Positions 3,616 to 46,227 of a stretch of 64,000 nt of DNA are shown here, piece after piece. Every line of letters starts with the position of its first letter. Position 1 is the first letter of the stretch. Made by a program: the position numbers and the translations under genes. Source of the stretch: a virus; IMG/VR virus record IMGVR_UViG_3300032307_000369, positions 30,875 through 94,874 of that record, one strand, 5' to 3'. The notes under the pieces are model-generated. The model did no database searches and had not been told where the DNA came from. It saw nothing but the letters and a program-made list of their open reading frames with translations.

Positions 3616-5505
3616 ATGTCAAAGATCATCGGTATCGACCTCGGTACAACAAATTCATGCGTAGCCGTTATAGAGAACGGAATCCCCAAAGTTATTGAAA
3701 ACAGCGAAGGTGCTAGAACAACACCATCAATTGTTGCCTATGCCAATAACGAAATCTTAGTAGGTGCTAGCGCCAAACGTCAAGCAGTTACTAATCCTAA
3801 AAATACAATCTATGCTAGTAAGCGTCTAATTGGACGCAAGTTTGAAGAGCAGGCTGTACAAAAAGACATTGACCTAATGCCTTACAAAATTGTTCGTGCA
3901 GACAACGGTGATGCTTGGATTGAAGCTAACAACGACAAACTTGCACCCCCACAAATCTCCGCTGAAGTTCTTCGCAAAATGAAGAAAACTGCTGAAGATT
4001 ACTTGGGCGAAACAGTTACTCAAGCAGTTATCACAGTACCAGCATACTTCAACGATAGTCAACGTCAAGCTACTAAGGATGCAGGTAAGATTGCAGGTTT
4101 AGAAGTATCGCGTATTATTAACGAACCAACTGCGGCTGCTCTTAGCTACGGTGTTGATAAGACTGACAAAGCTGATAGAAAAATTGCTGTTTATGACCTT
4201 GGTGGTGGAACATTTGATGTCAGCATTATTGACATTGCTGATGTTGATGGTGACAAACAAATTGAAGTACTGAGCACTAACGGAGACACGTTCTTGGGTG
4301 GTGAAGACTTTGACCAACGCATCATGGACTACTTAGTTGATGAGTTTAAGAAAGAACAAGGTGTTGACCTTAAGAAAGACATGTTGGCACTACAACGCTT
4401 AAAAGAAGCCAGTGAAAAAGCCAAGATTGAACTATCAAGCAGTGCGCAAACAGATGTAAACTTGCCTTACATTACAGCAGATGCAAGCGGACCTAGACAC
4501 ATGGCAATTAAATTGACTCGTGCTAAATTTGAGTCAATGGTTGAAGATTTGATTCAGCGCAGTTTAGATCCATGCCGTCAAGCTATGAAAGATGCAGGCG
4601 TGACAGCTAGCGACATTGACGAAGTTATTTTGGTTGGTGGTCAAACCCGTATGCCTAAGGTGCAAGAAGAAGTTGAAAAACTTTTTGGTAAGGCTCCACG
4701 TCGTGATGTAAATCCTGACGAAGCTGTTGCAGTTGGTGCGGCAATTCAAGGCGCTGTTCTAGGTGGTGATCGTAAAGACGTATTGCTATTAGACGTAACT
4801 CCTTTGAGTCTTGGTATTGAGACACTGGGTGGTGTGATGACCAAGATCATTCAAAAGAACACAACTATCCCAACTAAAGGACAACAAACTTTCTCTACAG
4901 CAGAAGATAATCAACCAGCTGTGACAATCAAGGTGTTCCAAGGCGAACGTGAACTTTGTCAGCATAATAAAATGTTAGGTGAATTTAATCTTGAAGGTAT
5001 TGCTCCAGCACGTCGTGGTCAGCCACAGATTGAAGTTACTTTTGACATTGATGCTAACGGCATTATGAACATTAGTGCTAAAGACAAATCAACTGGCAAA
5101 GAAAACAAGATCACTATTAAATCTGATAGCGGCTTGAGCAAAGAAGAAATTGAAAAAATGATTCAAGATGCTGAAGCAAATGCTGAGGCTGATAAGAAAG
5201 CACGTGAACTAATTGATTCTCGCAACAATGCAGAATCGCAAGTACACTCTGTTAAGAAAGACTTAACAGAATATGGTAGTAAAATTACTGAAGCTGATAA
5301 GTCTAACATAGAAACTGCTATTACACATGTAGAAGATTCTATCAAAGGCAATGATGCTGAAGTGATTACTAAATCAGTAAGTGCATTGTTTGAAGCAATG
5401 ACACCACTGATTCAAGCAAAGACTAGTACTGCTTCAGAAAGCAACAACAATAATCAAGACGATGTTGTTGATGCTCAATACACTGAAACACCTAAGTCTG
5501 AATAA
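3616..5505 (+). CDS. dnaK: molecular chaperone DnaK (Hsp70)
   Basis: SD AAAGGAG. Full-length Hsp70 signatures [18 protein letters not shown] and [11 protein letters not shown], collinear with proteobacterial DnaK from the nucleotide-binding domain to the acidic C-terminus. Confidence 0.95.
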
Positions 5506-5553
5506 GGTACCTTTAAGGGCCTAATTTGATTCTTACTTTAAAAGGAGATTATC

Positions 5554-5988
5554 ATGAATCAACTAAGAACTATAGATGCAGATACATTAACAAAAGCTCT
5601 AATTGGATTTGACACAATGTTTGATCAATTCGAACGTAGATTTTCTAATTCAATTAGCAACACTTACCCTCCTCATAATGTTATCAAAATTGATGACAAC
5701 AATTATGAGATCCAAGTGGCTGTGACTGGTTTTGGAAAAGACGAAGTCACTGTTGAACTTGATCAAAATGTATTAATTGTGACTGCTGGTAGAGATGTTG
5801 CAGAAGATGAAAAGACATATCTACACCGAGGACTTGCACAACGCAATTTTGTTCGCAACTTCCCGCTTGCTGAACATATTGAGGTTAAAGGTGCAGAACA
5901 AAAGAATGGCATCTTGTCAATTAGACTAGAACGCCTTGTTCCAGAAGCACTCAAGCCACGTCGAATTAATATCACGTATTCAGAGTAA
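5554..5988 (+). CDS. small heat-shock protein, Hsp20/alpha-crystallin family (IbpA-like)
   Basis: SD AAAGGAG. Alpha-crystallin domain architecture (…YEIQVAVTGFGKDEVTVELDQNVLIVTAG…, GILSIRL). Followed by a terminator. Confidence 0.8.
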   Translation: MNQLRTIDADTLTKALIGFDTMFDQFERRFSNSISNTYPPHNVIKIDDNNYEIQVAVTGFGKDEVTVELDQNVLIVTAGRDVAEDEKTYLHRGLAQRNFVRNFPLAEHIEVKGAEQKNGILSIRLERLVPEALKPRRINITYSE

Positions 5989-5992
5989 TTGG

Positions 5993-6025
5993 CAAAGGGG
6001 CCACTTGTGCCCCTTTGTTATTTGT
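5993..6025 (+). terminator. rho-independent terminator
   Basis: CAAAGGGGC-cacttgt-GCCCCTTTG followed by TTATTTGT. Confidence 0.65.
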
Positions 6026-6060
6026 AGTATAATAAGTAAAAATAATATTTAGGAAATTAA

Positions 6061-6363
6061 ATGGGTGAAATTGCTACCAAACAAAAAAGTCTAGTAACTA
6101 CAGATCTAATTGAACCTAGAAAGTTCAAAGTGATCTTCTTCAATGATGACAAAACTCCAATGGACTTTGTTATAGATTTGCTAATCAACTTGTTTAACCA
6201 TGATCAAACTAGTAGCAGTAAATTAACAATGGAAATTCATCATGAAGGCTCAGCAGTGGTTGGTGTTTATCCTTATGAAATAGCCGAGCAAAAAGGAATT
6301 GAATCCACACACATTGCACGACAAGCAGGATACCCATTACTAATTAAAGTTGAATCGGAGTAA
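6061..6363 (+). CDS. clpS: ATP-dependent Clp protease adaptor ClpS
   Basis: ClpS core KVIFFNDDKTPMDFVIDLL…HHEGSAVVGVYPYEIAE, about 100 aa, with an SD upstream. Confidence 0.8.
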   Translation: MGEIATKQKSLVTTDLIEPRKFKVIFFNDDKTPMDFVIDLLINLFNHDQTSSSKLTMEIHHEGSAVVGVYPYEIAEQKGIESTHIARQAGYPLLIKVESE

Positions 6364-6365
6364 AG

Positions 6366-6911
6366 ATGAGTTTACGGGAAATTACTAAAGATCTACATCA
6401 CGAAGCAGAAACAACAAAGTTTGCTAAGATGCTACTAAGTGGTAAAATTGGCAAGGAAGATTACAGAAACTATCTGTATAACTTACTAGCAATTTACGAT
6501 CCAATTGAGTGGTACTGTAAACGTCAGGGCTTTCTTACTAACATGCCAGACCTGCCAAGACTCAAGTCTATCTATGCAGATTTTACAGAATTAGATGAGT
6601 GCGGATATTACTACCTAACTCCTGCTACATTAGAATATCAAACATACTTACATAAACTAGGCAATGATCCAGAACGTAAACATCTTGTTAAGGCGCATTT
6701 ATATTGCCGCCATATGGGCGACCTATTCGGTGGCCAAATCATTAAGAAGCAAGTAGCACATATTTCAAGTGGTAAGTTTTACGACTTTGAAAATGCTGAT
6801 GCTATGAAGATGGCTATTCGTGAAACACTTACAGATGACTTGGGTGACGAAGCTCGGGTGGCATTTGAATTTGCTATTAAAATGATGCGTGATCTCTATG
6901 CCGGAGAGTAA
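6366..6911 (+). CDS. heme oxygenase (short HO family)
   Basis: LREITKDLHHEAE…, LYCRHMGDLFGGQIIKK matches the HO proximal and distal helix motifs (RYLGDLSGGQ). The start is coupled to the clpS stop. Confidence 0.7.
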   Translation: MSLREITKDLHHEAETTKFAKMLLSGKIGKEDYRNYLYNLLAIYDPIEWYCKRQGFLTNMPDLPRLKSIYADFTELDECGYYYLTPATLEYQTYLHKLGNDPERKHLVKAHLYCRHMGDLFGGQIIKKQVAHISSGKFYDFENADAMKMAIRETLTDDLGDEARVAFEFAIKMMRDLYAGE

Positions 6912-7584
6912 AGTATGGGACACCCTAATTGAAATCCAAGCTCTACTTGAGACGTCCTTTGAAAAAACAGGAGTCGAAGTCTTCGAGCCTGGCATGGATC
7001 GTTTTAATCAACCTGGTTGGGTTAATCGTGTATGGACTAGCGATAAGTATCGTAGGGCCCACGTTGATGTCGTCGATGCTAGGCTAACCAAAGGTCTTTG
7101 GATGATGCACTGTTGCATCTTCCCGCATACACATAATCCAGCTCCAATTTACGGCTTTGATGTTATTGCTGGTAAGAATAAAATTACTGGCTGTTTCCAC
7201 GACTATTCAAAAGCAGGTGATCCTAATCATCCCATGATGCAGTGGTTTCATGATGAAGTCAGTAAGTTAGAATGGCGCAGAGAGCGAACTTTACCTGAAT
7301 GGGCCACTAACATTTTTAGTGGTAGCATGGTTGCCGCAGGCAATGTACAAGATGAACAAGAACTAGAGCAAATTACTAATCTTGCTAAAACCACTATAGA
7401 ACACTATCTAAGCACAGTTGCTGATACTAACAATACCGTTCCTGATACTACATGGGATCAAAACTACTACGCACAGAATCAAAAATGTAACCCGCATACA
7501 CCCAGAGTTATGGTTAGTTTAGGGCTTTCAGAAGATGATGTCAAGCATTTTATACAGGAATGTCTGTTTCCAGAGATTCGATAA
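6889..7584 (+). CDS. ferredoxin-dependent bilin reductase family (PebS/PcyA/PcyX-like)
   Basis: About 230 aa directly downstream of heme oxygenase and overlapping its end. The size, acidic/aromatic composition and synteny (HO then FDBR) match phage bilin reductases. The start is GTG at 6889 or ATG at 6898. Confidence 0.5.
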   Translation: MISMPESKVWDTLIEIQALLETSFEKTGVEVFEPGMDRFNQPGWVNRVWTSDKYRRAHVDVVDARLTKGLWMMHCCIFPHTHNPAPIYGFDVIAGKNKITGCFHDYSKAGDPNHPMMQWFHDEVSKLEWRRERTLPEWATNIFSGSMVAAGNVQDEQELEQITNLAKTTIEHYLSTVADTNNTVPDTTWDQNYYAQNQKCNPHTPRVMVSLGLSEDDVKHFIQECLFPEIR

Positions 7585-9406: not shown

Positions 9407-9480
9407 ACACTAATTCACTAAGCATTTAATTTGTTGCCAGTTCTCCGTTAAATAATAATGACGGAATTCGGAGAGCGAGC

Positions 9481-19906: not shown

Positions 19907-19981
19907 CTGGCGATAGTTCAACGGATAGAACAGTAGCCTTCTAAGCTATTAATCCAGGTTCGATTCCTGGTCGCCGGACCA
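19907..19981 (+). tRNA. tRNA-Arg (anticodon UCU)
   Basis: Cloverleaf folded by hand. Acceptor CTGGCGA/TCGCCGG, D arm GTTC/GAAC, anticodon stem GTAGC/GCTAT with loop CTTCTAA, T arm CCAGG-TTCGATT-CCTGG, discriminator A and an encoded CCA. Confidence 0.8.
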
Positions 19982-19998
19982 CTTTTAGAAAGTTTGCT

Positions 19999-20832
19999 AT
20001 GAAAATTAACCTAGTCAGTGACATGCACATCAACTTTCAAGATATTAACTTGCCAGGTGGTGATGTGCTCATTATGGCTGGTGATATCATGGAAGCTGGG
20101 CATCTACGTCTTGCTGACAATGCTAAAAAGAATACTTTTATTGCAGACCGGTACCGTAGATTCATCAATGAAGAATTAATCAAATACCGTCATGTGATCT
20201 ACGTTGCGGGTAATCACGAACATTATAGTAACAGCTATGACGATACTCACGATAGACTAAAACGTGAATTGCCTGACAACGTGCATTTTTTAGAAGCAGA
20301 ATCAATCAAGATTGATGATGTATGGTTCTTTGGTGGCACGTTTTGGACTGACATGAACAAGGGTGATCCTATTACTGCCAGTGTGTTAAAACAAAACATG
20401 GCTGACTTCAGTGGGTCTATCAAATTTGGTAATAGTATTCGTGTTGATACCATGTACGGTGATAGTTTTTACACCAGTAAATTCACTCCAGCGTATGCCA
20501 AGGGCGTGTTTCACGAAACAATGGAAAAATTGAAAACTTTTTTAGAAGCTCACCCTGATGAAAAAGTTGTTGTAGTAAGTCATCATGCACCAACAGAGTT
20601 GAGTGTTAATGAATACTACAAAAATGAATTCCATATGAATGGTGGATACCATAGTCGATTGGGTGATTTTATTTTAGATCATCCTAATATCAAAGTATGG
20701 TGCCATGGTCACATGCACGATCCGGTTGATTACACTATAGGCACAACTCGTGTGCTGAGTAACCCACGTGGTTATAAAGGATATGAGCAACAAGCTGAAG
20801 TGTTTGATCCTAATTTTAGTTTTGACGTATAA
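19999..20832 (+). CDS. calcineurin-like metallophosphoesterase
   Basis: MPP motifs: DMH (block I), GDIME (block II), GNHE (block III), HHAP and GHMH. Confidence 0.7.
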   Translation: MKINLVSDMHINFQDINLPGGDVLIMAGDIMEAGHLRLADNAKKNTFIADRYRRFINEELIKYRHVIYVAGNHEHYSNSYDDTHDRLKRELPDNVHFLEAESIKIDDVWFFGGTFWTDMNKGDPITASVLKQNMADFSGSIKFGNSIRVDTMYGDSFYTSKFTPAYAKGVFHETMEKLKTFLEAHPDEKVVVVSHHAPTELSVNEYYKNEFHMNGGYHSRLGDFILDHPNIKVWCHGHMHDPVDYTIGTTRVLSNPRGYKGYEQQAEVFDPNFSFDV

Positions 20833-20843
20833 GGACAACAGAC

Positions 20844-21473
20844 ATGGGATTTGTTTGTGATGGAGATTTATCTAAGATATTTGGACGCATTGACAAAAAA
20901 CTGTCTGTTGTGCATGATAAAGACAAGTCGTTAGTTAAACTACTTGATCTTGACATTGAACAAGGACCGTGGCTTGCTGGCGGAGCCGTACTCACATGGC
21001 TCAGTGGACATCCTGTTGGAGACAGTGACTTTGATATCTTTTTCAAAGACTTGCGACAGTTTGATGAAATGTTTGGCAGGCTCATGCGCAATCATGCTAG
21101 TATTATCTATACCAGTGAAAACGCATTAACTCTACATCTTACCATTGATGATGAACTCAAACGCATACAATTAATTCGAAAGAGTTATTTTGATTCTGCA
21201 AAAGATGTAATTGATCATTTTGATTTTACAATTTGTCAATTGGTCACTGATGGATACCAAGTAATTGGTGCTGATCATACCTTTGAACATTTAAAAGAAA
21301 AAAGAATTGTCAGTGTAGGTCCAGCAAAGCGGTCTGTGGTAAAACGAATTGTCAAATACGTTAGTTATGGGTATACCGTTGATCAAAATTTGATGCAGTC
21401 TATTCTTGACAACCCAGATGATTATGACTGGTCGTTTAATAACATAGATGAAAATTATGAAAACGCATTCTAA
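20844..21473 (+). CDS. putative Pol-beta-superfamily nucleotidyltransferase
   Basis: LAGGAVLTWLSGHPVGDSDFDIFF fits the hG[GS]-x(9-13)-D-x-[DE] NTase signature. The rest is unknown. Confidence 0.4.
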   Translation: MGFVCDGDLSKIFGRIDKKLSVVHDKDKSLVKLLDLDIEQGPWLAGGAVLTWLSGHPVGDSDFDIFFKDLRQFDEMFGRLMRNHASIIYTSENALTLHLTIDDELKRIQLIRKSYFDSAKDVIDHFDFTICQLVTDGYQVIGADHTFEHLKEKRIVSVGPAKRSVVKRIVKYVSYGYTVDQNLMQSILDNPDDYDWSFNNIDENYENAF

Positions 21474-21840
21474 GTATCATGGTTGGAGTTTACTAGACCC
21501 ACGTCCAGTATTTTACCTAGACGAAACAACTCACACTGAATTGTGTGTATGGAACGGTATATACATGACCAAAAAACAAGCTATGTTGATTGCGTGTGAA
21601 AAATACTTGTCAATTTGGCCTACCCCAACTATGAAAAATCGTAGCTATCAAGAGTTCATTACTGCATATTTTAGTAATGCGTTTGGTCACAGAGAGTGGG
21701 ATGGCATTATTTCTAGATTGAACAACGGACAAGATCACTACAATTTGCTAGTTAAGATGCTAAAACCGCATACTCAAAAGATGCCGGCATATTCCGGACC
21801 AGAAGTTTTGTCTTGGTTTAACCTACACAAACAAAAATAG
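21448..21840 (+). CDS. hypothetical protein (130 aa)
   Basis: Overlaps the upstream NTase-like gene. Contains R-x6-H (RLNNGQDH), possibly HEPN-like. Weak call. Confidence 0.4.
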   Translation: MKIMKTHSKYHGWSLLDPRPVFYLDETTHTELCVWNGIYMTKKQAMLIACEKYLSIWPTPTMKNRSYQEFITAYFSNAFGHREWDGIISRLNNGQDHYNLLVKMLKPHTQKMPAYSGPEVLSWFNLHKQK

Positions 21841-21848
21841 GCTATATT

Positions 21849-22067
21849 ATGACTCGTTATACAGCAGAAGTTAAATACGACAAAGACACAGACGAACATT
21901 ATTTGCAGTTTGATCCAGAAGTTCTATCTCAAATGGGATGGGATTTTGGTGATACTATAATTTGGAAGGATAATAACGATGGGTCATTCACGCTTACGAA
22001 AAAAGTGGATAACCAACCCAGTGACCAGACTTCAAATGTTCCAGTTAATGGAGCCGCTGAAGAGTAA
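21849..22067 (+). CDS. hypothetical protein (72 aa)
   Basis: Short ORF with an ATG and a purine-rich upstream region. Confidence 0.4.
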   Translation: MTRYTAEVKYDKDTDEHYLQFDPEVLSQMGWDFGDTIIWKDNNDGSFTLTKKVDNQPSDQTSNVPVNGAAEE

Positions 22068-22662
22068 ACTACTAGGTTTCCCTTTATACAAAGAAGAAAT
22101 CAGTGCCGTAATTGGTGAATTACTTAGTACTAAATTTAGAGCTGATATCATACAAGCTGAAGCAAGCCAAGTAGATATAGGTGATGTAAACGTGAGTGCC
22201 TGTTATGATCCAGAATTGGACAGTATGGATCGACCTTGTATTGAAATAGTATTAGTTTATAATCCTTACGATACATTTTTAATTTTTGATCAAGAATTAT
22301 TTTCCACATTGACCAAAAGACTCTGTGATGCACTATCACATGAACAAATTCATCAACAACAGCACAGATCTAGATTTTGGGAAGATGTGGATTATGATGA
22401 CCCTGATGACGATGAAGCATATTTGGCTAACAAAGATGAAATTGATGCATACAGTCATAACATTGCCAATGAACTTTTGGACTTCGCAGACCTAAATCAG
22501 GTCTTGACATTAATACAATATCCAAGTAAAATAAAGATTGAACACAGCGTAAACCTTTGGGTTTACATGCAAACATTTAACAACGATACAAATCATCCAG
22601 TAATCAAAAGATTACTAAAAAAAGTTACTAAAATTCTACCTAAGGTAGTTTTACAAAGATAA
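22049..22662 (+). CDS. hypothetical acidic protein
   Basis: ATG at 22049 (MEPLKSKLL…) is preferred over the track start at 21979, which overlaps the previous gene by 89 nt. Carries a DYDDPDDDE acidic patch. Confidence 0.45.
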
Positions 22663-22779
22663 ATAAAATACTATGAAGACAACAGCATATCAATTTGCAT
22701 CCAATAAGAAGATTCCTTCTTCCGTTGTCTACTTGTCTTTAATCCCACGAATACGATTACAACACTCTTAAAAAGTTAA

Positions 22780-22880
22780 GGGAGTGTTGCTAATATTGGC
22801 CTAAGGGCAGAGCTTATACCTCTGTAAGCACCGTCTAGATAAGGCGGCGAATGTGGGTTCGATTCCCGCCACTCCTACCA
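22780..22880 (+). tRNA. atypical tRNA-like element (about 101 nt including CCA, anticodon unresolved)
   Basis: Canonical 3' half: T arm GTGGG-TTCGATT-CCCGC, acceptor 3' strand CACTCCT, discriminator A, CCA. The only complementary 5' strand is GGGAGTG, giving G1:U72 and about 25 extra nt in the 5' half. GGGAGTG also pairs with an upstream AACACTC as a hairpin. Confidence 0.35.
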
Positions 22881-22886
22881 AACATT

Positions 22887-22971
22887 GCCTGCATGGTGAA
22901 ATAGGTAAACACAGCAGACTTAAAATCTGCCGGAGAAATCCTTCCCAGTTCGATTCTGGGTGCAGGCACCA
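22887..22971 (+). tRNA. tRNA-Leu (anticodon UAA), class II
   Basis: Acceptor GCCTGCA/TGCAGGC, 3-bp D stem GTG/CAC with GG in the loop, anticodon stem GCAGA/TCTGC with loop CTTAAAA, 13-nt variable arm, T arm CCCAG-TTCGATT-CTGGG, A73 and CCA. Confidence 0.8.
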
Positions 22972-22978
22972 AATACAG

Positions 22979-23007
22979 TTGACAAAGATAACAAAAACAT
23001 ATATAAT
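22979..23007 (+). promoter_or_regulatory. sigma70-like promoter, TTGACA-N17-TATAAT, driving the second tRNA-Leu
   Basis: Perfect hexamers with a 17-bp spacer, ending 24 nt before the tRNA 5' end at 23031. Confidence 0.5.
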
Positions 23008-23030
23008 AAGGAACACTTTAAAAGGAAAAT

Positions 23031-23114
23031 GCGACTGTGGTGGAATGGTATACACAGCAGACTTAAAATCTGCCGCCGCAAGGATTGAGGGTTCGAGTCT
23101 CTCCAGTCGTACCA
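23031..23114 (+). tRNA. tRNA-Leu (anticodon UAA), second copy, class II
   Basis: Acceptor GCGACTG/CAGTCGT (G1:U72), D stem GTG/CAC, an anticodon arm identical to the first copy (GCAGA-CTTAAAA-TCTGC), long variable arm, T arm GAGGG-TTCGAGT-CTCTC, A73 and CCA. Confidence 0.75.
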
Positions 23115-30576: not shown

Positions 30577-31377
30577 ATGAGCTATCCGTATTTGATTCAA
30601 GGCAATAATGTTGTTGTGGTAATTGACAACAAGCCGCACACTATCAGCAAGACACATATCACTTACCAAAAGGTAGTTGATGCAATTAAAGCTAATGACT
30701 GGGAAACAGTTAAAGACACAATTGAACCTAAAAAGGTTGTACTAGAGTACGGCAAAGGTAACGTTGAAGTCCAAGGAGAACAGTTGTTTTGGAAAGGCAA
30801 AGCGTTTCATAATGCTTTGGCAACTCGTATGATCCAAATGTTGCAAGATGGTTTCCCAGTGGAACCTCTAGTCAACTTTATGGAAAATTTGATGAAGAAC
30901 CCTAGTTACCGTTCAGTAAATGAACTGTATGGTTTCTTGGAAAAGAACAACTTGCCAATTACCAGCGATGGTCACTTCCTTGCTTATAAGAAAGTTCGTA
31001 AGGATTATAAAGACTGTCATACTGGTACAATGGATAACAGTATTGGTCAAGTGGTTGAAATGGAACGTCATAGTGTTGACGACAATGCCAACAATACTTG
31101 CAGTTCTGGTTTGCACTTCTGTTCCAAAGAGTACTTGAATAGTTTTGGTGGCGACCGCACTGTGATTGTTAAAATCAATCCTGCAGATGTTGTTAGTATT
31201 CCCACTGACTATGACTTTAGCAAGGGTCGTGCTTGCCGATACGAAGTTATTGGTGAGTTGGGTGTACATCCAGACGATGCTTTCAAAGCACCTGTTCAAG
31301 ATGAAGCCTACACACAAGAGCAACTGGATGCCGCAGTTAAGGCCGCAGTTGAAGCCGCTCTTAAGGTAACACAATGA
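30577..31377 (+). CDS. rIIB: rIIB-like protein
   Basis: About 267 aa, coupled to the upstream gene (TAAAATG). Assigned by synteny and size only. Confidence 0.35.
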   Translation: MSYPYLIQGNNVVVVIDNKPHTISKTHITYQKVVDAIKANDWETVKDTIEPKKVVLEYGKGNVEVQGEQLFWKGKAFHNALATRMIQMLQDGFPVEPLVNFMENLMKNPSYRSVNELYGFLEKNNLPITSDGHFLAYKKVRKDYKDCHTGTMDNSIGQVVEMERHSVDDNANNTCSSGLHFCSKEYLNSFGGDRTVIVKINPADVVSIPTDYDFSKGRACRYEVIGELGVHPDDAFKAPVQDEAYTQEQLDAAVKAAVEAALKVTQ

Positions 31378-37348: not shown

Positions 37349-37764
37349 AAATTGGATTTACATGTAGCACGTTTGATTTGTTTCATGCAGGGCATGTAAT
37401 TATGCTTGAAGAAGCAAAGAAGCAATGTGACTTTTTAATAGTAGGTTTACAAACTGACCCAACCATTGATAGACCCAATACTAAAAACAAACCGGTACAA
37501 GGTGTGTTTGAACGTTGGACCCAATTAAAGGCTTGCAAGTTTGTAGATCAAATTGTTCCATACAGTAGTGAAAAGGAATTGCTAGACCTATTGCAATCTT
37601 TTCCTATTGATGTTAGAATAATAGGTGAGGAATACAAAGACAAATCTTTTACTGGTGATCATTTAGATATGGATTACCATTTTAATGAAAGACGACATAG
37701 TTTTAGTACAACAGAATTGCGCCAACGTGTGGTTGATGCAGAAAATAAAAAGGAAATAAAATGA
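37345..37764 (+). CDS. cytidylyltransferase (TagD / RfaE-domain-II-like nucleotidyltransferase)
   Basis: [15 protein letters not shown] is the HxGH motif of the CTP:glycerol-3-phosphate cytidylyltransferase family. Confidence 0.65.
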
Positions 37765-38381
37765 GTTTAGTCCCAATGGTAGTTGAAAAAAGTAATCAAG
37801 GTGAACGAGCCTATGACATTTATAGTCGATTACTCAAAGACCGTGTTATATTTTTGAACGGCGAAGTAGAAGATTACATGGCAAATGTAATTATTGCACA
37901 ACTACTATTCTTAGAAAGTGAGAATAGTGATTTGGATATTCACTTGTACATCAATAGTCCAGGCGGTAGCGTGAGTGCCGGTCTTGCAATTTATGACACT
38001 ATGCAGTTCATCAAACCAGATGTATGTACGTATGTCATGGGTCAAGCCTGTAGTATGGGCAGTTTCCTAGCACAAGCGGGTGCTCCTGGCAAACGAGTAG
38101 TACTTCCAGAATCACGCACAATGATTCACCGTGTGAGCTCAGGTACACGCGGTACAAGTGGTAGTATTCACGTACAAGACTTGCAATTTGAAGATGCTAA
38201 ACGTAGTTTTGAAGAAGCACAACGTATCAACAAACGTCTAACAGAATTGTATGTACGTCATAATACAGTGGGCAAAACATACGAAGAGCTATTTGAAACT
38301 ATGAAGTTTGATACTTTCTTGAGTGCCGCTGAAGCTGTTGCCAATGGTCTTGCTGATCAAGTGATTGCAAAACGTCCTTGA
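37761..38381 (+). CDS. clpP: ATP-dependent Clp protease proteolytic subunit ClpP
   Basis: Collinear with bacterial ClpP. Ser ([10 protein letters not shown]), His (MIHRVSSG) and Asp triad present, plus INSPGGSV. Confidence 0.9.
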
Positions 38382-39926: not shown

Positions 39927-40466
39927 ATGGCAAAATATCTTTCAACAAAAACATACGGCAATGATCGTGGACTTTCATGCTGTTTCAGACAGTGGCGTAG
40001 CACACATAGTCACTGCTCATTACTACACGGATATTCAATTGGTATTAAATTAATTTTTGAATCCGAGACACTAGATGATCGTAACTGGGTTATGGATTTT
40101 GGTGGACTAAAAGCATTCAAAGAGTGGAGCGAATACATGTTTGATCATACTTTGGTGCTTGGTGTTGATGATCCACATTTAGAAAAATTTAAAACACTTG
40201 CGGCACTTGGTCTTAATGATGTGGGCGGAGTTTGCGACATTCGTATCGTAGAAGCTGTAGGCTGTGAAAAATTTGCTGAATTGGCTTACAAAACTATGCA
40301 AGACATTTTGGAAACTTTCCAAAAGGGCGAAGGTTGGGAACTAAAAGACCAGTCTGGCAAAACATTAAAGTTGTTCGGTGCTCGTTATCCAGTTGGCGCA
40401 GGTGTTAAATTGCGTTCAGTAGAAGTTTTTGAACACGCCGGTAACAGTGCTGTTTATGAAGGATAA
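39927..40466 (+). CDS. 6-pyruvoyl-tetrahydropterin synthase / QueD family protein
   Basis: HSHCSLLHGYS resembles the QueD C-x3-HGH zinc motif with Tyr in place of the last His. WVMDFGGLK resembles QueD WIIDFAELK. Confidence 0.55.
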   Translation: MAKYLSTKTYGNDRGLSCCFRQWRSTHSHCSLLHGYSIGIKLIFESETLDDRNWVMDFGGLKAFKEWSEYMFDHTLVLGVDDPHLEKFKTLAALGLNDVGGVCDIRIVEAVGCEKFAELAYKTMQDILETFQKGEGWELKDQSGKTLKLFGARYPVGAGVKLRSVEVFEHAGNSAVYEG

Positions 40467-40472
40467 ACTTTC

Positions 40473-40802
40473 ATGAAACATAGTATCTGCGACATTGGCG
40501 GTGTCGTAGTTAAGGATAACGAAACTTATGTCCTTAAAGACAACACCTTTCTTAAAAACTTAATTTTAAGTTCAACAGACTTAAAACCTAAACAAAGCAC
40601 TCGCGGTCACAAACATCCTGGACAAGAAGAAGTTTATTATTTTGTCAACGGGAGCGGTATAATGGAATTAGACAACGAAAAGATACCAGTTTGTCCAGGG
40701 GACGTTATACTAATCAAAGATGGAGTATTCCATAGAGTACATAACACAGAAGAAGAAAATCTTTATTTCGTTTGTGTATTTGACGGGAAGAGAAATCATT
40801 AA
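40473..40802 (+). CDS. cupin-domain protein
   Basis: Cupin motif 1 GHKHPGQEEVYYFVNG and motif 2 PGDVILIKDGVFHRVHN. Confidence 0.55.
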   Translation: MKHSICDIGGVVVKDNETYVLKDNTFLKNLILSSTDLKPKQSTRGHKHPGQEEVYYFVNGSGIMELDNEKIPVCPGDVILIKDGVFHRVHNTEEENLYFVCVFDGKRNH

Positions 40803-42096: not shown

Positions 42097-42127
42097 ACAA
42101 AAACCCGCACTAGGCGGGTTTTTTGTT
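42097..42127. terminator. bidirectional rho-independent terminator
   Basis: AAACCCGC-actag-GCGGGTTT flanked by A5 on one side and T6 on the other. It serves the convergent genes 41060-42076 (+) and 42151-42429 (-). Confidence 0.75.
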
Positions 42128-42150: not shown

Positions 42151-42429
42151 TTACGAAGTCTTCTTAGGCGCCCTAGGTTTAGTACCAACTTTCTTTACAG
42201 CTGGTGCTTTTGCTGGGGCTTTTGGTTTTGGAGCTGCCTTAGGTTTTGCAGGTGCCTTAGCTTTAGCGGGAGCCTTTTTAGTTGCTGGCGCTTTTTTAGC
42301 TGGGACAATTGATTCAACCACAGCCTGAGTTGCTTGTTCTGCAACAGGTGCGGGTGTTTCAACTTTATAAGGAACTTCTGCTGTTACTGGCTTCTCTGAA
42401 CCAAATAATGATTTTAGAAATTTAATCAT
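42151..42429 (-). CDS. histone-H1-like Ala/Lys/Pro-rich DNA-binding protein
   Basis: C-terminal tail KKAPATKKAPAKAKAPAKPKAAPKPKAPAKAPAVKK (AKP repeats). SD present. Followed by the bidirectional terminator. Confidence 0.6.
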   Translation of the reverse strand: MIKFLKSLFGSEKPVTAEVPYKVETPAPVAEQATQAVVESIVPAKKAPATKKAPAKAKAPAKPKAAPKPKAPAKAPAVKKVGTKPRAPKKTS

Positions 42430-42522
42430 AATTTAATCTCCTTGTATTTTAATTATGCCTACAGATTGTTCGATAAATAAAATTGTGAAAGCATTGAAAC
42501 AAAATATGCAGTTATAATACAG

Positions 42523-42551
42523 TTGACTTAATGAGATATTGGTGCTACAAT
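42523..42551 (+). promoter_or_regulatory. sigma70-like promoter, TTGACT-N17-TACAAT, for the suf operon
   Basis: Consensus-like boxes about 48 nt upstream of the sufC ATG. GATAAATA at 42468 is also present. Confidence 0.45.
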
Positions 42552-42598
42552 AATGAATGTGGGCCACGAACTACAATAACAATAAGGTTCAATTAGTT

Positions 42599-43324
42599 AT
42601 GTTAAAAATTACAAATCTCTCCGTCAATTACGACGTTATTCCAATTTTGGAAGATATCAATTTAGAAATCAACGAAGGCGAAATTCACGCTATTCTAGGA
42701 CCAACAGGATCTGGAAAAAGTTCCTTGGCAAGTACAATAGCTGGTAAAACAGACCTCAGTGTTGTTAAAGGAAAAATAAACTTTAAAAGAAAATCTTTGA
42801 ACAGTTTAAATCCAAATGAAAGAAGTAAGTTAGGAATTTTTACAACCTTTCAAGAACCTCCTGAAATTAATGGGATCACAAATTTAAATTTAACCAGACA
42901 AATTTTAAATGCTCGTAATGACAAAAGATCATCAACTGACATTATTAATGATTACAAAAGTTTAATAAAACAATTTGATCTAGGAAGCGAATGGTCCAAT
43001 CGAGATTATAACGTAGGAGCAAGTGCAGGCGAAAAAAAGAAAAATGAAATTGTACAGTTACACATGCTCAATCCATCTCTTACAATTTTAGACGATATTG
43101 ACAGTGGTTTAGACTTAGACACACTAACCGAAGTATTTAAAAGTTTAAAAACTTTCCTATCACAAAAAGGAAAGGCAGCTATCATTATCACACATCAACC
43201 AACGATCCTTGAAGCAATCGAGCCCACCCATGTGCATGTTATCATAGATGGAAGAATCGTAGAGTCAGGTGATAAGAAACTAATTAAAAGGATCATTTCA
43301 AATGGCTATCGAGAGTTTTCTTAA
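42599..43324 (+). CDS. sufC: Fe-S cluster assembly ATPase SufC
   Basis: ATG 42599 with AAGG upstream. Walker A GPTGSGKSS, ABC signature and Walker B (LNPSLTILDDIDSGLD). About 240 aa, typical SufC size. Confidence 0.8.
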   Translation: MLKITNLSVNYDVIPILEDINLEINEGEIHAILGPTGSGKSSLASTIAGKTDLSVVKGKINFKRKSLNSLNPNERSKLGIFTTFQEPPEINGITNLNLTRQILNARNDKRSSTDIINDYKSLIKQFDLGSEWSNRDYNVGASAGEKKKNEIVQLHMLNPSLTILDDIDSGLDLDTLTEVFKSLKTFLSQKGKAAIIITHQPTILEAIEPTHVHVIIDGRIVESGDKKLIKRIISNGYREFS

Positions 43325-44126
43325 AGTTGATTCACAAGACCCAGATTGGTCAAACAGTCCCACTCAGTACTTTGGTAAAAAATTTAAGGTCATTGATGCA
43401 AATTGCTTAATGATAAAAGAAAATACTGATGACTTAATGGTTCTACGTATGAACCCAACTGAGTCAGATTTGCTGTGTAAAAATTTGCAAGTTCTTGGAA
43501 AAGATAGTAGTAGATTAGATTTGTTTATTTTATGTGACGGATCTAAAAATACTCAACAGGTTTTTATTTACAATGTAACTGCTGAGCCAGATTCAATTAT
43601 TAATATTGGAATTTTTGTTAAGGACGGAAAACTTAATAAGCATATTTTTGAATGTGAACTTTATGAGAATTCTGTTATTAACATTTTTGGTCTTGCAGAA
43701 AACGAAGTTGGTGGCAGTAGTGAAATCATAAGCAAAGTTTACCATGCAGGTCCTTGTGCAGAGAGCAACACATTTGTAAACAGTATTGCTGGAAAAAATA
43801 GTCGAACTGTTTTTCAAGGCATTGTCAAAATTGAAGAAGACATGATAGACAGTGTTGCCAGTGTAACTAACACTAGTATTACATGTGATGAAACTGCCCA
43901 AGCATTTAGTACTCCGCAAATGATAATTGATTGTGGACAAGTGAGAGCATATCATAACTGTGAAGTCAACACTGTTGACGAAAATAACATATGGTATTTA
44001 GAAAGCAGGGGAATTGATAGAAGTAGTGCTGAAACTCTATTAAAAACGTTGCATCAAGATAGTGTGTTGGACCTTGTTGAATATCAAGACATTAGAGATG
44101 AACTCAAAGATTTTTTCCAAAGTTAA
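43302..44126 (+). CDS. sufD: SufD/SufB-family Fe-S assembly protein
   Basis: C-terminal beta-helix region …CGQVRAYHNCEVNTVDENNIWYLESRGIDRSSAETLL resembles the SufBD core (Y..SRGI). Shorter than typical SufB. Confidence 0.55.
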   Translation: MAIESFLKVDSQDPDWSNSPTQYFGKKFKVIDANCLMIKENTDDLMVLRMNPTESDLLCKNLQVLGKDSSRLDLFILCDGSKNTQQVFIYNVTAEPDSIINIGIFVKDGKLNKHIFECELYENSVINIFGLAENEVGGSSEIISKVYHAGPCAESNTFVNSIAGKNSRTVFQGIVKIEEDMIDSVASVTNTSITCDETAQAFSTPQMIIDCGQVRAYHNCEVNTVDENNIWYLESRGIDRSSAETLLKTLHQDSVLDLVEYQDIRDELKDFFQS

Positions 44127-45246
44127 AAGCGATTTTACTTTACCAGACAAAACATACTTAAACAGTGCATCACAAACTTTAATTCCTAATCAAGTAAAAA
44201 ATTCCTACCTTGATATTTGTAATAAAATTGATGCAAGGAAAGAGTATGAAAATGTTAGACAAAAAGTAAAACTACTAATTAATTCTAAAAAAGATAATGA
44301 AGTAGTTTTTACTCAAGGCAACAATCATAGCATTAATATGATTGCCAAAAGTATTTGTCATAAATGGCATTCAAATGATTGTGTAATTGTTCCTGAAAGT
44401 GAGCATCATGCCAATTTACTCATTTGGCAATACATGTCAATTGAATACGGTTTTAGATTTGAAACTGTAAATGTTATCAAAGACGGCAGCATGGATCTTG
44501 GTCATCTTGAAGACTTGCTAGACAGTTGTGATGGTAAAATATTGTTCAGCATGAGTCACATATCCAACAGCATTGGATATGTACAGCCTGTTAAGAGTAT
44601 TTTTGACAAGGTTAAAGAGTATGACGGAATAACTCTACTAGATGCAAGTTTGAGCATTGGTAGAGAATTGATAGATGTGCAAGAGTTTAATATTGATTTT
44701 CTAACATTTACTGGTCATAAATTTTATGGTCCAACTGGTGTTGGTATATTATATGGCAAGCAAAAATATTTAGACAAGTTAGAGCCTACTATATTAGGCG
44801 ACAGTAATAGCACATTATTACCATGGAAATTAGAAATTGGTAAACCTAATATTGCAAGTGTAGTTATGTTAGGTTCAGCAATTGATTGGTTTACATCATA
44901 TGATTTAGAAAGTTTTCATACCTACGATAAACTTATGAATGCAAATTTTCAAATGATGTTAAATGAATTAGACTTTGTAGAAATATTTCATCCTGGTTAT
45001 TATAAGGGAGGATTAATTGGATTTAATCTACATGGACACCATCCTGCGTATGTGGGTGAATTTTTGTCTAATGAAGGTATTGTATTAAAATATGGACATT
45101 TGAATGCAAGACCTATTGTAGAAGAAAAGTTCCCAAATGGTATACTTAGATTAAGTTGGGCCTGCTATAATACTAAAGAAGACGTTGAACAATTAAGGCA
45201 AGGACTTATAAAATTCTACGATAAATATAGTTCTAAAAGGACATAA
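44098..45246 (+). CDS. sufS: cysteine desulfurase SufS (class V aminotransferase)
   Basis: FTGHKFYGPTGVGILYG carries the PLP-lysine motif. The N-terminus DFTLPDKTYLNSASQ resembles SufS DFP…YLDSAATS. The ATG at 44098 overlaps the sufD end. Confidence 0.7.
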   Translation: MNSKIFSKVKSDFTLPDKTYLNSASQTLIPNQVKNSYLDICNKIDARKEYENVRQKVKLLINSKKDNEVVFTQGNNHSINMIAKSICHKWHSNDCVIVPESEHHANLLIWQYMSIEYGFRFETVNVIKDGSMDLGHLEDLLDSCDGKILFSMSHISNSIGYVQPVKSIFDKVKEYDGITLLDASLSIGRELIDVQEFNIDFLTFTGHKFYGPTGVGILYGKQKYLDKLEPTILGDSNSTLLPWKLEIGKPNIASVVMLGSAIDWFTSYDLESFHTYDKLMNANFQMMLNELDFVEIFHPGYYKGGLIGFNLHGHHPAYVGEFLSNEGIVLKYGHLNARPIVEEKFPNGILRLSWACYNTKEDVEQLRQGLIKFYDKYSSKRT

Positions 45247-45249
45247 AAT

Positions 45250-45639
45250 ATGGCTTATTCTTCACAAGTAATTGATCATTATGAAAACCCTAGAAACGTA
45301 GGTTCATTTGATAAAAATGATAATGATGTTGGAACTGGTATGGTTGGAGCTCCTGCTTGTGGTGACGTTATGAAATTGCAAATTAAAGTTAATGAACAAG
45401 GTATTATTGAAGATGCAAAGTTTAAAACTTATGGGTGTGGTAGTGCTATTGCTAGTTCTAGTCTTGTCACCGAGTGGCTCAAGGGCAAGAACTTGGATGA
45501 GGCACAAGCCATTAAGAACTCAGATATCGCTACTGAACTTGCGTTACCGCCCGTTAAGATTCACTGTTCAATATTAGCAGAAGATGCTATCAAAGCCGCA
45601 GTAGCAGATTATAAAGCTAAACATGATAACACTATCTGA
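45250..45639 (+). CDS. iscU: Fe-S cluster scaffold IscU/SufU-like
   Basis: Three conserved Cys in the contexts [17 protein letters not shown] and HCS. Begins [17 protein letters not shown]. Confidence 0.8.
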
Positions 45640-45943
45640 ACAAGCTGCCAATAGGGTAAAAGCAACTCTAGAAAAGCGTGGTAAAGGACTAGGGATTAGA
45701 TTAGGGGTCAAAACTACAGGTTGTAGTGGCATGGCCTATATGATAGAATTTGTAGATACTCCTACCACTGATGATATGAGCTTTGTTAGTTACGGAGTTC
45801 ATGTGTTTGTAGATCCAAAAAGTTTAGCATACCTTGATGGTGTACAAGTGGAATGGGTTAAGAAAGGTCTTAATGAAGGCTTTGATTTTACCAATCCTAA
45901 CGAACGTGATCGTTGTGGTTGCGGGGAAAGTTTTAGAGTTTAA
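45623..45943 (+). CDS. A-type Fe-S carrier (IscA/SufA/ErpA)
   Basis: [16 protein letters not shown] and the C-terminal CGCGESF form the three-Cys A-type carrier signature. Confidence 0.8.
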
Positions 45944-46227
45944 ATCTTTCCAATTGGCAAAGTACTGCTAACTGGCATATCCCATATTTTTCTTTTAGTA
46001 ATGCCCATTCGTTGGGCAAATTTTTTGACGTCACAATCACCACATACGTGGAAATATTTGTTGCTGAGTCTTTTGGGATCTATTTTAGCATGATCTCTTG
46101 TAAAATCCTTGTCGCAATTGTCACAGCGAAACACATTGATTGTTTTTGTTCTAGTATACTGGTGTTCTTTTCCCAGTTTACTGCTTCGAACATACTTGGA
46201 AATTTCTTTAAAAGATCTTATGAACAT
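45940..46227 (-). CDS. small zinc-finger protein
   Basis: CDNCDK…HVCGDCD (a CxxC pair). Minus strand, its stop overlapping the iscA-like stop. Confidence 0.45.

Follow-up and report, generated by a model that had tools for sequence, protein, structure and literature searches.

We analysed a cluster of genes for the assembly of iron-sulfur (Fe-S) clusters on a 64,000-nucleotide stretch of viral DNA (positions 30,875 to 94,874 of IMG/VR record IMGVR_UViG_3300032307_000369; hereafter the window). Coordinates are positions in this 64-kb window, and L-numbers (L004, L006 and so on) denote the related phage loci with which it was compared. The list of open reading frames (ORFs) places five of them on the + strand between 42557 and 45943, in the order sufC, sufD, sufS-like, iscU and iscA. 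Alignment with homologues led us to re-set two of the start sites, the most likely ones being 42599 for sufC (241 amino acids, aa; MLKITNL...) in place of 42557, and 44098 for the sufS-like gene (382 aa) in place of 44062. The promoter and the genes are as follows.

42523..42551, + strand: sigma-70-type promoter, TTGACT-N17-TACAAT with an extended -10 TG (sequence scan)
42599..43324, + strand: sufC homologue, 241 aa (TIGR01978 profile)
43302..44126, + strand: short SufD, 274 aa (SUFBD_core match, predicted fold)
44098..45246, + strand: SufS-derived protein, 382 aa (class-V aminotransferase profile)
45250..45639, + strand: iscU, 129 aa (TIGR01999)
45623..45943, + strand: iscA, A-type carrier, 106 aa (TIGR02011)

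A first-pass annotation of this DNA had read the block as a complete and self-contained Fe-S biogenesis line that mixes SUF and ISC parts. Pfam and TIGRFAM profile searches matched all five genes to the families it had named, and the mixture is as described, with SufC-, SufD- and SufS-like proteins next to members of the IscU and IscA families. The sufC product scored 255 bits against TIGR01978 (cut-off 212.8) and 177 bits against E. coli SufC (PDB 2D3W), with which it aligns along its length. The ORF at 43302 matched Pfam SUFBD_core (PF01458; 99.5 bits, E=2.5e-28, cut-off 27) and scored higher as SufD (TIGR01981, 102.8 bits) than as SufB (TIGR01980, 57.1 bits), falling short of the TIGR01981 equivalog cut-off of 222 bits. 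It comprises the beta-helix core and C-terminal helices; the N-terminal domain found in E. coli SufD (423 aa) is missing. The SufB/D fold claimed for it was borne out by an AlphaFold2 (AF2) model with a predicted local distance difference test score (pLDDT) of 92, for which the best PDB matches were E. coli SufD/SufB entries (Foldseek top matches E. coli SufD 1VH4 and 5AWF_B, template modelling score up to 0.78). The SufS-like protein, also modelled at pLDDT 92, matched Aminotran_5 (PF00266) at 265 bits, stayed below the subfamily cut-off of TIGR01979 (273 bits vs 475), and scored about 182 bits against E. coli SufS. IscU scored 228 bits against TIGR01999 (cut-off 192.4) and is not of the SufU type (TIGR01994, 66 bits, under the cut-off of 92.5); IscA scored 161 bits against TIGR02011 (cut-off 150.6).

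Family membership was not matched by conservation of catalytic residues in the suf-derived genes. SufC retains the Walker A Lys (GPTGSGKS), the Q-loop Gln (FQE) and the H-loop His (ITHQ). In the alignment, its Walker-B catalytic Glu (E. coli E171) is replaced by Asp, giving ILDDID vs ILDESD/ILDEID, and the ATP-binding cassette (ABC) signature SGGE has become SAGE. ILDDID and SAGE occur in the window and in L004, and ILDEID and SGGE in the relatives that carry sufB (sufB+). Mutagenesis of a SufC homologue in vivo found the Walker A Lys, E171 and H203 all to be needed, with E171Q abolishing function (bioRxiv 10.1101/2024.03.20.586028).

In the SufS-like protein, alignment to solved SufS structures places Asn at the position of the persulfide Cys (E. 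coli C364; KYGHLNARP vs RAGHHCAQP of SufS), a Cys that is present in the SufS of L006 and L007. The motifs GTT, AQ and EAGTP, which we take from SufS structures to be ligands of pyridoxal 5'-phosphate (PLP), read GNN, SL and EIGKP; GTT presumably binds the phosphate, the Gln is presumably the PLP O3' ligand and the Thr of GTP presumably acts across subunits. EHHAN, the PLP Lys (GHK), the PLP-binding Asp and one aligned Arg are retained, the last aligning with a residue that we take to be the carboxylate-binding R379. Relative to SufS of sufB+ phages, a 13-aa segment with HRGIH and about 10 aa of the type-II beta-hairpin near the PLP Lys are deleted. RxGHHCA is the type-II signature, and the beta-hairpin matters for partner binding (PMC8300815).

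In SufD, the His matching E. coli SufD H360 is kept (VRAYHNC aligned to VKCSHGA). SufD H360, SufB C405 and SufB E434 make up the cluster site, and SufB C254 takes sulfur from SufE (PMC5571166). The short SufD belongs to a family of 46 clusters, all exactly 274 aa save a few called with longer starts, for which we found no close bacterial member. Its N-terminal region is extremely conserved over all lineages, and the H360-equivalent His is gone from 21/45 clusters.

IscU and IscA, judged by their residues, appear to be the only members of the block that are catalytically competent. IscU is fully collinear with E. coli IscU (2L4X), with C37, D39, C63, H105, C106 and LPPVK all in place, and the three Cys of IscA (C35, C99 and C101; GCSG, CGCGESF) align to those of E. 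coli IscA (1R94).

Other parts of an Fe-S assembly system were not found. Searches with tblastn returned no sufB, sufE, sufT or grx anywhere in the window, in agreement with the first-pass observation that a canonical SufB is lacking. The genes iscS, iscR, hscB, hscA and fdx are likewise not in the window (iscS, hscB, hscA and fdx were queried by tblastn), and the HscA query matched only DnaK, at 40%. The line can hence not be called complete, having neither a SufB scaffold nor a SufE/SufU acceptor, and its synteny marks it as a reduced and remodelled derivative of a full sufBCDSE-sufT-sufA operon. Nor is a self-contained line supported, given a SufS-like protein without the persulfide Cys, a SufC with Asp for the Walker-B Glu, and no Fdx, HscB or HscA in the window.

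The packing of the five genes is that of an operon: overlaps measure 23 nt (sufC/sufD), 29 nt (sufD/sufS) and 17 nt (iscU/iscA), and a 3-nt gap separates sufS from iscU; such overlapping or abutting junctions are expected of one translationally coupled operon. Promoter-like sites are not enriched across the region (21 vs 18.9 in shuffles). In six diverged phage loci, the site at 42523..42551 is kept in position ahead of the first suf gene, and TTGAC(T/A)-N17-TA(C/T)AAT stands at the equivalent position in L004, L115, L117, L006 and L007, where the flanks have diverged. This conservation amid diverging flanks supports a real promoter, and with it the earlier proposal of a single operon under a sigma-70-type promoter. 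Ahead of sufC in the window, which is sufB-less, lies a 47-nt leader with an AAGG ribosome-binding site. In sufB+ phages (L007, around 3850-3876; L006, around 1985-2011), a conserved TATAAT box ends about 7 nt before the sufB ATG, a spacing which suggests that their sufB mRNA may be leaderless or near-leaderless.

Sister phages carry an intact operon at the same locus. Its order is sufB-(grx4)-sufC-sufD-sufS-sufE-sufT-sufA, all catalytic motifs are intact, and it was found on three IMG/VR contigs: 3300017917_002056 (L007/L008), 3300008113_006810 (L006/L009) and 3300037189_012866 (L010). As in the window, the locus consists of uvdE, a small minus-strand ORF, the promoter, the suf genes, a 95-aa ORF and a giant fibre gene. 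The sister SufB has 474 aa and scores 846 bits against NF008773 (cut-off 717); among sufB+ loci, Grx4 occurs in L006 only. Window and sister proteins are 65% (SufC), 64% (SufD) and 53-56% (SufS; 53% with that of L007) identical, and the sister SufD is equally short, at 274-276 aa. DNA alignment shows the window to be collinear with the sister loci except in two intervals: (i) 42459-42660, where sufB is missing; and (ii) 45225-45914, where iscU-iscA occupies the place of sufE-sufT-sufA.

Across the 12 loci that we compared, the absence of sufB coincides perfectly with the loss of catalytic residues. The three sufB+ loci, which represent two lineages (L006/L007 and the diverged L010), all retain GPNGAGKS, SGGE, ILDE and TH in SufC, the His in SufD, and GTT, AQ, HK, GTP and Cys in SufS. 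In the sufB-less loci, the SufC signature is altered in 9/9, the SufS Cys is gone from all eight that still have SufS, and the SufD His is gone from seven of nine. Lineages other than that of the window have degenerated further, having lost the PLP Lys, the SufC Q-loop, H-loop or Walker-A glycines, or the SufD His. The phage SufS clade, which is set off from bacterial SufS by a wide gap (about 30-34% identity), takes four forms: a long canonical one (401-414 aa, with Cys and HK); a short one like that of the window, with Cys replaced by Asn and HK kept; one in which the PLP Lys is also lost and Cys is replaced by Asp; and a single case with Ser for Cys.

Gene content is graded as well. The five-gene block, for which the first-pass annotation had suggested a survey of homologous phages, recurs in some relatives and is cut short in others: iscU-iscA is present in L117, L118, L121 and L122, whereas L005 and L115 have sufC-sufD-sufS-like only. 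In L117, L118 and L121 the PLP Lys is gone and iscU-iscA is kept. L123 has lost sufS altogether and retains SufC and SufD; SufC and the short SufD form the invariant core among the loci. At or near the position of sufB, L121 (4639-5229) and L123 (965-1516) encode an Fe/Mn superoxide dismutase (SOD), and L006 (3430-3741) the monothiol glutaredoxin Grx4. On this gene content, the locus appears to behave as an exchangeable Fe-S and oxidative-stress island.

Every gene of the block is under strong purifying selection. By simple pairwise Nei-Gojobori estimates, the ratio of nonsynonymous to synonymous substitution rates (dN/dS) between the window and L004 is 0.058 for sufC, 0.048 for sufD and 0.049 for the sufS-like gene. 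It is 0.012-0.090 between L117 and L118 (sufC, sufD, sufS-like, iscU and iscA) and 0.022-0.049 between L005 and L115 (sufD and sufS-like). These two pairs are the most degenerate lineages, and their values are similar to those of intact operons (0.010-0.040 for sufB, sufC, sufD and sufS between the sufB+ loci L006 and L007). Ratios this low (0.01-0.09) point to conserved pseudoenzymes rather than pseudogenes. Because SufC, SufD and the SufS-like protein are conserved despite their residue losses, the function retained is unlikely to be canonical catalysis.

The history of the iscU-iscA cassette differs from that of its neighbours. Between the phage IscU and many beta/gamma-proteobacterial IscU proteins, including those of Polynucleobacter, Massilia, Rheinheimera and Vibrio, identity is 83-90%; between the phage IscA and bacterial IscA it is 57-67%. 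The two cassette genes have a GC content at third codon positions (GC3) of 0.23-0.25, like the phage's own genes, and the phage copies group together in a quick neighbour-joining tree; both results indicate that the acquisition is old, and we therefore rejected a very recent capture or a chimeric assembly. Between the window and L004, SufC, SufD and SufS are 92-96% identical with synonymous divergence (dS) of 0.3-0.8. For the cassette itself (45250-45943, vs 7949-8633 of L004), IscU is 87-88% and IscA 64-65% identical, and synonymous sites are saturated. A cassette so much more diverged than the adjacent sufCDS genes has evidently been exchanged by recombination between phage lineages. A look-up of the IscU product placed the same phage in three other samples.

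The block is phage-borne, as the first-pass annotation had assumed, and the genome that carries it is jumbo-phage-like. Phage-type genes in the window include rIIA, rIIB, a T4-type RNA ligase, a DNA polymerase fragment, three tRNAs, and a 2854-aa protein with tail-fibre PHROG matches together with two further giant fibre-like ORFs. On more than 10 independent contigs, which come from different samples, the block has uvdE on one side and the giant tail-fibre gene on the other. Syntenic relatives occur in IMG/VR, JGI, ENA, Logan and one NCBI metagenome assembly, and a JGI contig of 245,550 bp encodes a SufS product that is 100% identical. The GC3 of the operon (0.22-0.25) is that of the phage's other genes. 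Recurrence on viral contigs, the surrounding phage genes and the matching GC3 together argue against a bacterial contaminant. A megablast search of the block against 50,697 GenBank phage records gave zero matches, and tblastn against the same set gave distant ones (at most 33% identity), mostly in records that resemble bacterial contigs. We considered one of these records, "Microcystis phage MaAM05" (L120, MW495066.1, 266015-273876), as a cultured precedent and set it aside. Identity is only about 26-32%, and the end of that record carries panC and a full-length, bacterial-type sufB-sufC-sufD-sufS-iscU, so that this part resembles DNA of a bacterium more than an operon adapted to a phage.

SufB itself is widespread among viral contigs, occurring on at least 150 in IMG/VR. 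On many of these contigs (L011, L012, L014, L017, L018, L021, L023, L026 and L027; L013, L015 and L016) SufB is highly conserved (61-73% identity), and the flanks that were retrieved contain none of sufC, sufD and sufS; some are arranged sufB...queD...uvdE...sufE instead. Lone viral SufB seems common. In two pattern-based IMG/VR scans, the second of which listed the best 80 of 150 matches, SufB was not returned for the 214-kb contig of the 93%-identical relative L004, an absence that is suggestive at most.

As its synteny and residues show, the operon is a phage-borne, remodelled remnant of a full SUF operon (sufB-[grx4]-sufC-sufD-sufS-sufE-sufT-sufA). In our interpretation it is transcribed from a host-type promoter, SufC, SufD and the SufS-like protein would be non-catalytic and IscU-IscA would be the working part; we put the probability of this reading as a whole at roughly 0.6. 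In the window lineage, sufB was deleted, sufE-sufT-sufA was swapped for a beta/gamma-proteobacterial-type iscU-iscA cassette, and the residues for ATP hydrolysis and persulfide formation were lost from the SufC and SufS homologues. The phage would then have no canonical sulfur mobilisation of its own, and its IscU scaffold and IscA carrier would be loaded by host IscS, with host ferredoxin and HscBA or an Hsp70, so that more Fe-S clusters become available in the course of infection. The trio of SufC, short SufD and SufS-like protein would make up a non-catalytic, probably complex-forming module that binds Fe-S assembly partners instead of building clusters canonically, in the manner of an adaptor or a regulator, or alternatively of a decoy aimed at host SUF/ISC factors. 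Because the Grx4, SOD, IscU and IscA cassettes share an Fe-S and oxidative-stress theme, we favour a supportive role; the deletion of the partner-binding beta-hairpin argues against capture of SufE or SufU.

Several points weigh against this interpretation. We infer the loss of activity from residues and published mutagenesis, and the window lineage has degenerated least among those without sufB. Its SufC still has Walker A, Q-loop and H-loop, and Asp at the Walker-B position can support slow hydrolysis, making residual SufC chemistry possible. Its SufD retains the cluster-site His, and its SufS-like protein retains the PLP Lys, His, Asp and Arg, which would be compatible with some residual or altered SufS-like chemistry. 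The window covers 64 kb of a genome of about 245 kb, in which sufB, iscS or another desulfurase could lie elsewhere. Dependence on host IscS is an assumption, with IscU identity pointing only broadly to beta/gamma-proteobacteria, and the SufC-SufD-SufS-like complex is a putative, if probable, one. A further reading, which we advance tentatively, is that a large freshwater phage lineage has turned captured SUF machinery into conserved pseudoenzymes with a new non-catalytic role. The ATPase site of SufC would be dead, the SufD ligand gone, and SufS deprived of its Cys and then of its PLP Lys, with iscU-iscA, SOD and Grx4 as accessory cassettes; the most plausible role would be to bind and re-route or block host Fe-S assembly factors.

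We also weighed rival interpretations. A self-contained hybrid, in which SufS frees cysteine sulfur for IscU, SufCD gives energy or iron, and IscA delivers clusters, would fit the presence of five families in operon order with intact IscU and IscA, and the sufC-sufD-sufS-U order resembles the Gram-positive layout sufCDSUB. We consider it improbable: the SufS-like protein has Asn for Cys, no hairpin, no HRGIH and changed PLP ligands, SufC has Asp for Glu, SufB, SufE and SufU are absent from the window, and L117, L118 and L121, of like architecture, have lost even the PLP Lys yet retain IscU-IscA. Alternatively, the SufS-like protein could still be a PLP enzyme that works without the Cys and feeds IscU, as a C-DES-like cyst(e)ine C-S lyase that yields sulfide or cysteine persulfide, a selenocysteine lyase or a cysteine sulfinate desulfinase. 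E. coli SufS C364A is said to keep selenocysteine lyase activity, and GHK, EHHAN, the PLP-binding Asp and the aligned Arg are all kept in the window lineage. Synechocystis C-DES, a NifS-like protein without the conserved Cys, supports ferredoxin Fe-S assembly (PMC8300815). The phage protein derives from SufS, however, and is unrelated to C-DES; GTT has become GNN, Gln has become Leu and Thr has become Lys, and the HRGIH segment is deleted. Its kin have moreover lost the PLP Lys while purifying selection on them is just as strong, which means that PLP chemistry is not what the family is selected for. We regard such an enzyme as unlikely; a residual Cys-independent PLP activity is conceivable specifically for the window lineage, where the Lys, His, Asp and Arg are kept. 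Only slightly better placed, and still unlikely in our view, is a decoy or dominant-negative trio, a sub-case of the non-catalytic reading in which dead subunits bind host SufB, SufE or IscU and shut down or redirect Fe-S biogenesis, for example by starving Fe-S-dependent defences or channelling iron and sulfur to phage needs. Such a role would suit the stepwise loss of residues from full-length, confidently folding proteins under strong purifying selection, the extreme conservation of the SufD N-terminal region in all lineages, and the persistence of SufC-SufD after SufS is lost (L123). It sits less well with the deletion of the partner-binding hairpin of SufS and with the neighbouring IscU, IscA, SOD and Grx4, which suggest support of Fe-S homeostasis over sabotage; many beta-proteobacteria, moreover, have no SUF system.

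Two further alternatives were weighed. If the sufC, sufD and sufS homologues were functionless and heading for deletion after the loss of sufB, residue losses would track sufB loss, as they do, and genes would be dropped, as sufS has been in L123 and iscU-iscA is missing from L005 and L115. But dN/dS is 0.01-0.09 in every comparison, the most degenerate lineages included, there are no frameshifts or stops, the overlapping coupled arrangement is preserved, and the short SufD is 274 aa in nearly all 46 clusters; decay is thus very improbable. Least probable of all is a bacterial block on a mis-binned or chimeric contig. The 83-90% identity of IscU to bacterial IscU and the host-like genes of the window (for example DnaK, the curli genes and TerC) could be read that way, yet more than 10 independent contigs carry the same block between uvdE and the giant tail-fibre gene, its GC3 matches that of phage genes, rIIA/rIIB, tail-fibre and DNA polymerase genes share the window with it, and neither the short SufD nor this SufS clade has close bacterial members.

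The operon is flanked by a hairpin and two small minus-strand ORFs.

42099..42124, no strand: bidirectional intrinsic-terminator-like hairpin, AAAAACCCGC-ACTAG-GCGGGTTTTTT (read off the sequence by eye; a simple scan did not list it)
42151..42429, - strand: 92-aa Lys/Ala/Pro-rich ORF, divergent from the suf promoter (ORF list; neighbour in all relatives)
45940..46227, - strand: 95-aa zinc-ribbon-like ORF, CxxC...CxxC, convergent; its stop codon overlaps the iscA stop

The hairpin falls in the interval bounded by the stops of uvdE (42076) and of the 92-aa ORF, and from this position is predicted to set the suf unit apart from upstream transcription. Profile searches gave zero family matches for the 92-aa ORF, which is histone-H1-like in composition, with KAPAK repeats; homologues were called in L115, L117, L121, L122 and L007. 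The convergent ORF agrees with the zinc-finger gene noted at first pass, and is present in all relatives at this site, always directly before the giant tail-fibre gene. It persists even in loci without sufS or without iscU-iscA, and the sole terminator-like hairpin after iscA (46002-46018) falls within it.

The window carries further cargo, some of which touches on iron or protein folding. A proteostasis set (3616-6363; 37761-38381) places DnaK alongside Hsp20 and ClpS, with ClpP further on. The DnaK is 65-68% identical to proteobacterial DnaK, and neither a J-protein nor HscB was seen in the window; since IscU has the Hsp70-binding LPPVK, the phage DnaK could in principle stand in for HscA. 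Heme oxygenase and a ferredoxin-dependent bilin reductase are encoded by overlapping ORFs at 6366-7584. Heme oxygenase frees iron from heme, and both enzymes need reduced [2Fe-2S] ferredoxin. As a link to Fe-S supply, this pair is more plausible than the Que pathway, whose enzymes had been put forward as possible Fe-S clients. That proposal found no support in the window: the only Que-type protein there is QueD/PTPS, which is not an Fe-S enzyme, and no radical S-adenosylmethionine enzyme, QueE included, was found. The QueD/PTPS-family protein (39927-40802) scores under the QueD equivalog cut-off and adjoins a small cupin; QueC, QueE and other 7-deazaguanine genes were not seen among window ORFs of at least 100 aa.

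Elsewhere, a curli-type set at 9458-12305 (CsgF 9458-9991, CsgG 9995-11233 and a curlin-repeat protein 11331-12305) is unusual phage cargo. The C-terminal SH3 match of CsgG is weak and sub-threshold, and the set is followed by a FecR-domain protein and an F5/8-type-C domain protein. At 15146-18540, genes of a host-signalling type encode a membrane protein of the TerC family (minus strand) and, in 681 aa, a CHASE2 sensor fused to an adenylate/guanylate cyclase domain. The tRNA genes at 19907-23114, Arg(tct) and two Leu(taa), serve A/T-ending codons, fitting the low GC3 of the phage.

We compared the locus with known systems. It shares phage group, position and the short SufD with the sister operons, and differs from them in lacking SufB, SufE, SufT and SufA (and Grx4, compared with L006) and in its mutated SufC and SufS active sites. 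Proteobacterial SUF (E. coli sufABCDSE), which works with a SufBC2D scaffold and a sulfur relay from SufS to SufE, has homologous SufC, SufD and SufS in the same C-D-S order; unlike it, the window has no SufB, SufE or SufA, a SufD of 274 rather than 423 aa, E171 of SufC changed to Asp, and C364 of SufS changed to Asn together with two deletions. With the proteobacterial ISC operon (iscR-iscS-iscU-iscA-hscB-hscA-fdx) it has in common the adjacent iscU-iscA in the same order, all ligands, and LPPVK; compared with the genes of Polynucleobacter, Alishewanella, Methylophilus and Vitreoscilla, the phage IscU is 86-88% and IscA 57-63% identical. The window lacks iscS, iscR, hscB, hscA and fdx, however, and the phage copies form their own clade with phage-like GC3. 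The likeness to the Gram-positive layout, sufC-sufD-sufS followed by a U-type gene for SufU, the partner of SufS, is superficial: the U-type gene is IscU and not SufU, and SufB and the SufS Cys are absent. Synteny with the sister loci indicates that this likeness arose by cassette replacement and not by descent.

Among single proteins, Synechocystis C-DES resembles the SufS-like protein in its class-V aminotransferase fold, its Fe-S link and its lack of the catalytic Cys (PMC8300815), but C-DES is an active PLP enzyme of another subfamily, whereas the phage protein derives from SufS and its PLP ligands are altered. SufC also has parallels in other ABC proteins. In the degenerate ABC sites of TAP1 and of the first nucleotide-binding domains (NBD1) of MRP1 and CFTR, the Walker-B Glu is changed to Asp or Ser, with signature or H-loop changes, and ATP is bound but poorly hydrolysed. 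Those transporters are asymmetric; in the phage, soluble SufC itself is degenerate, so that neither site of a SufC dimer would be spared.

Single Fe-S auxiliary genes from viromes (sufE, nifU/iscU and sufA/iscA) have been read as boosting host Fe-S supply under stress (PMC8940887). Our literature searches, which took in jumbo-phage desulfurases, desulfurase pseudoenzymes without the Cys and SufC E171Q, yielded only such single-gene virome reports and bacterial mechanistic papers; among these, none described a suf operon in a phage, a SufS lineage lacking the Cys or a degenerate SufC. Virus-encoded Fe-S assembly genes are thus already known; what is unusual here is that a SufC-SufD-SufS-like module, conserved yet degenerate in its catalytic residues, is joined to a cassette of ISC scaffold and carrier, in a multi-gene locus that can be traced through full, reduced and seemingly catalytically dead states.

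Viral Fe-S genes are usually named by family and counted as auxiliary metabolic genes, and the present locus is a case in which naming of this kind misleads: the labels "cysteine desulfurase" and "SufC ATPase" here cover proteins without essential catalytic residues. The locus also suggests that phage IscU and IscA provide the functional contribution to host ISC-dependent Fe-S supply. The loci form a graded natural series, from the full sufBCDSE-T-A operon through sufB-less, partly degenerate forms to those in which SufC, SufD and SufS all appear dead, every step under purifying selection. The series raises a testable question, namely what role non-catalytic SUF proteins have in infection, and it offers natural mutants for dissecting SufC-SufD-SufS interactions. 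If captured SUF machinery has indeed been turned into conserved pseudoenzymes, it would represent the first pseudoenzyme module in a virus to derive from a pathway of Fe-S biogenesis, with a natural series of the stepwise loss of catalysis.

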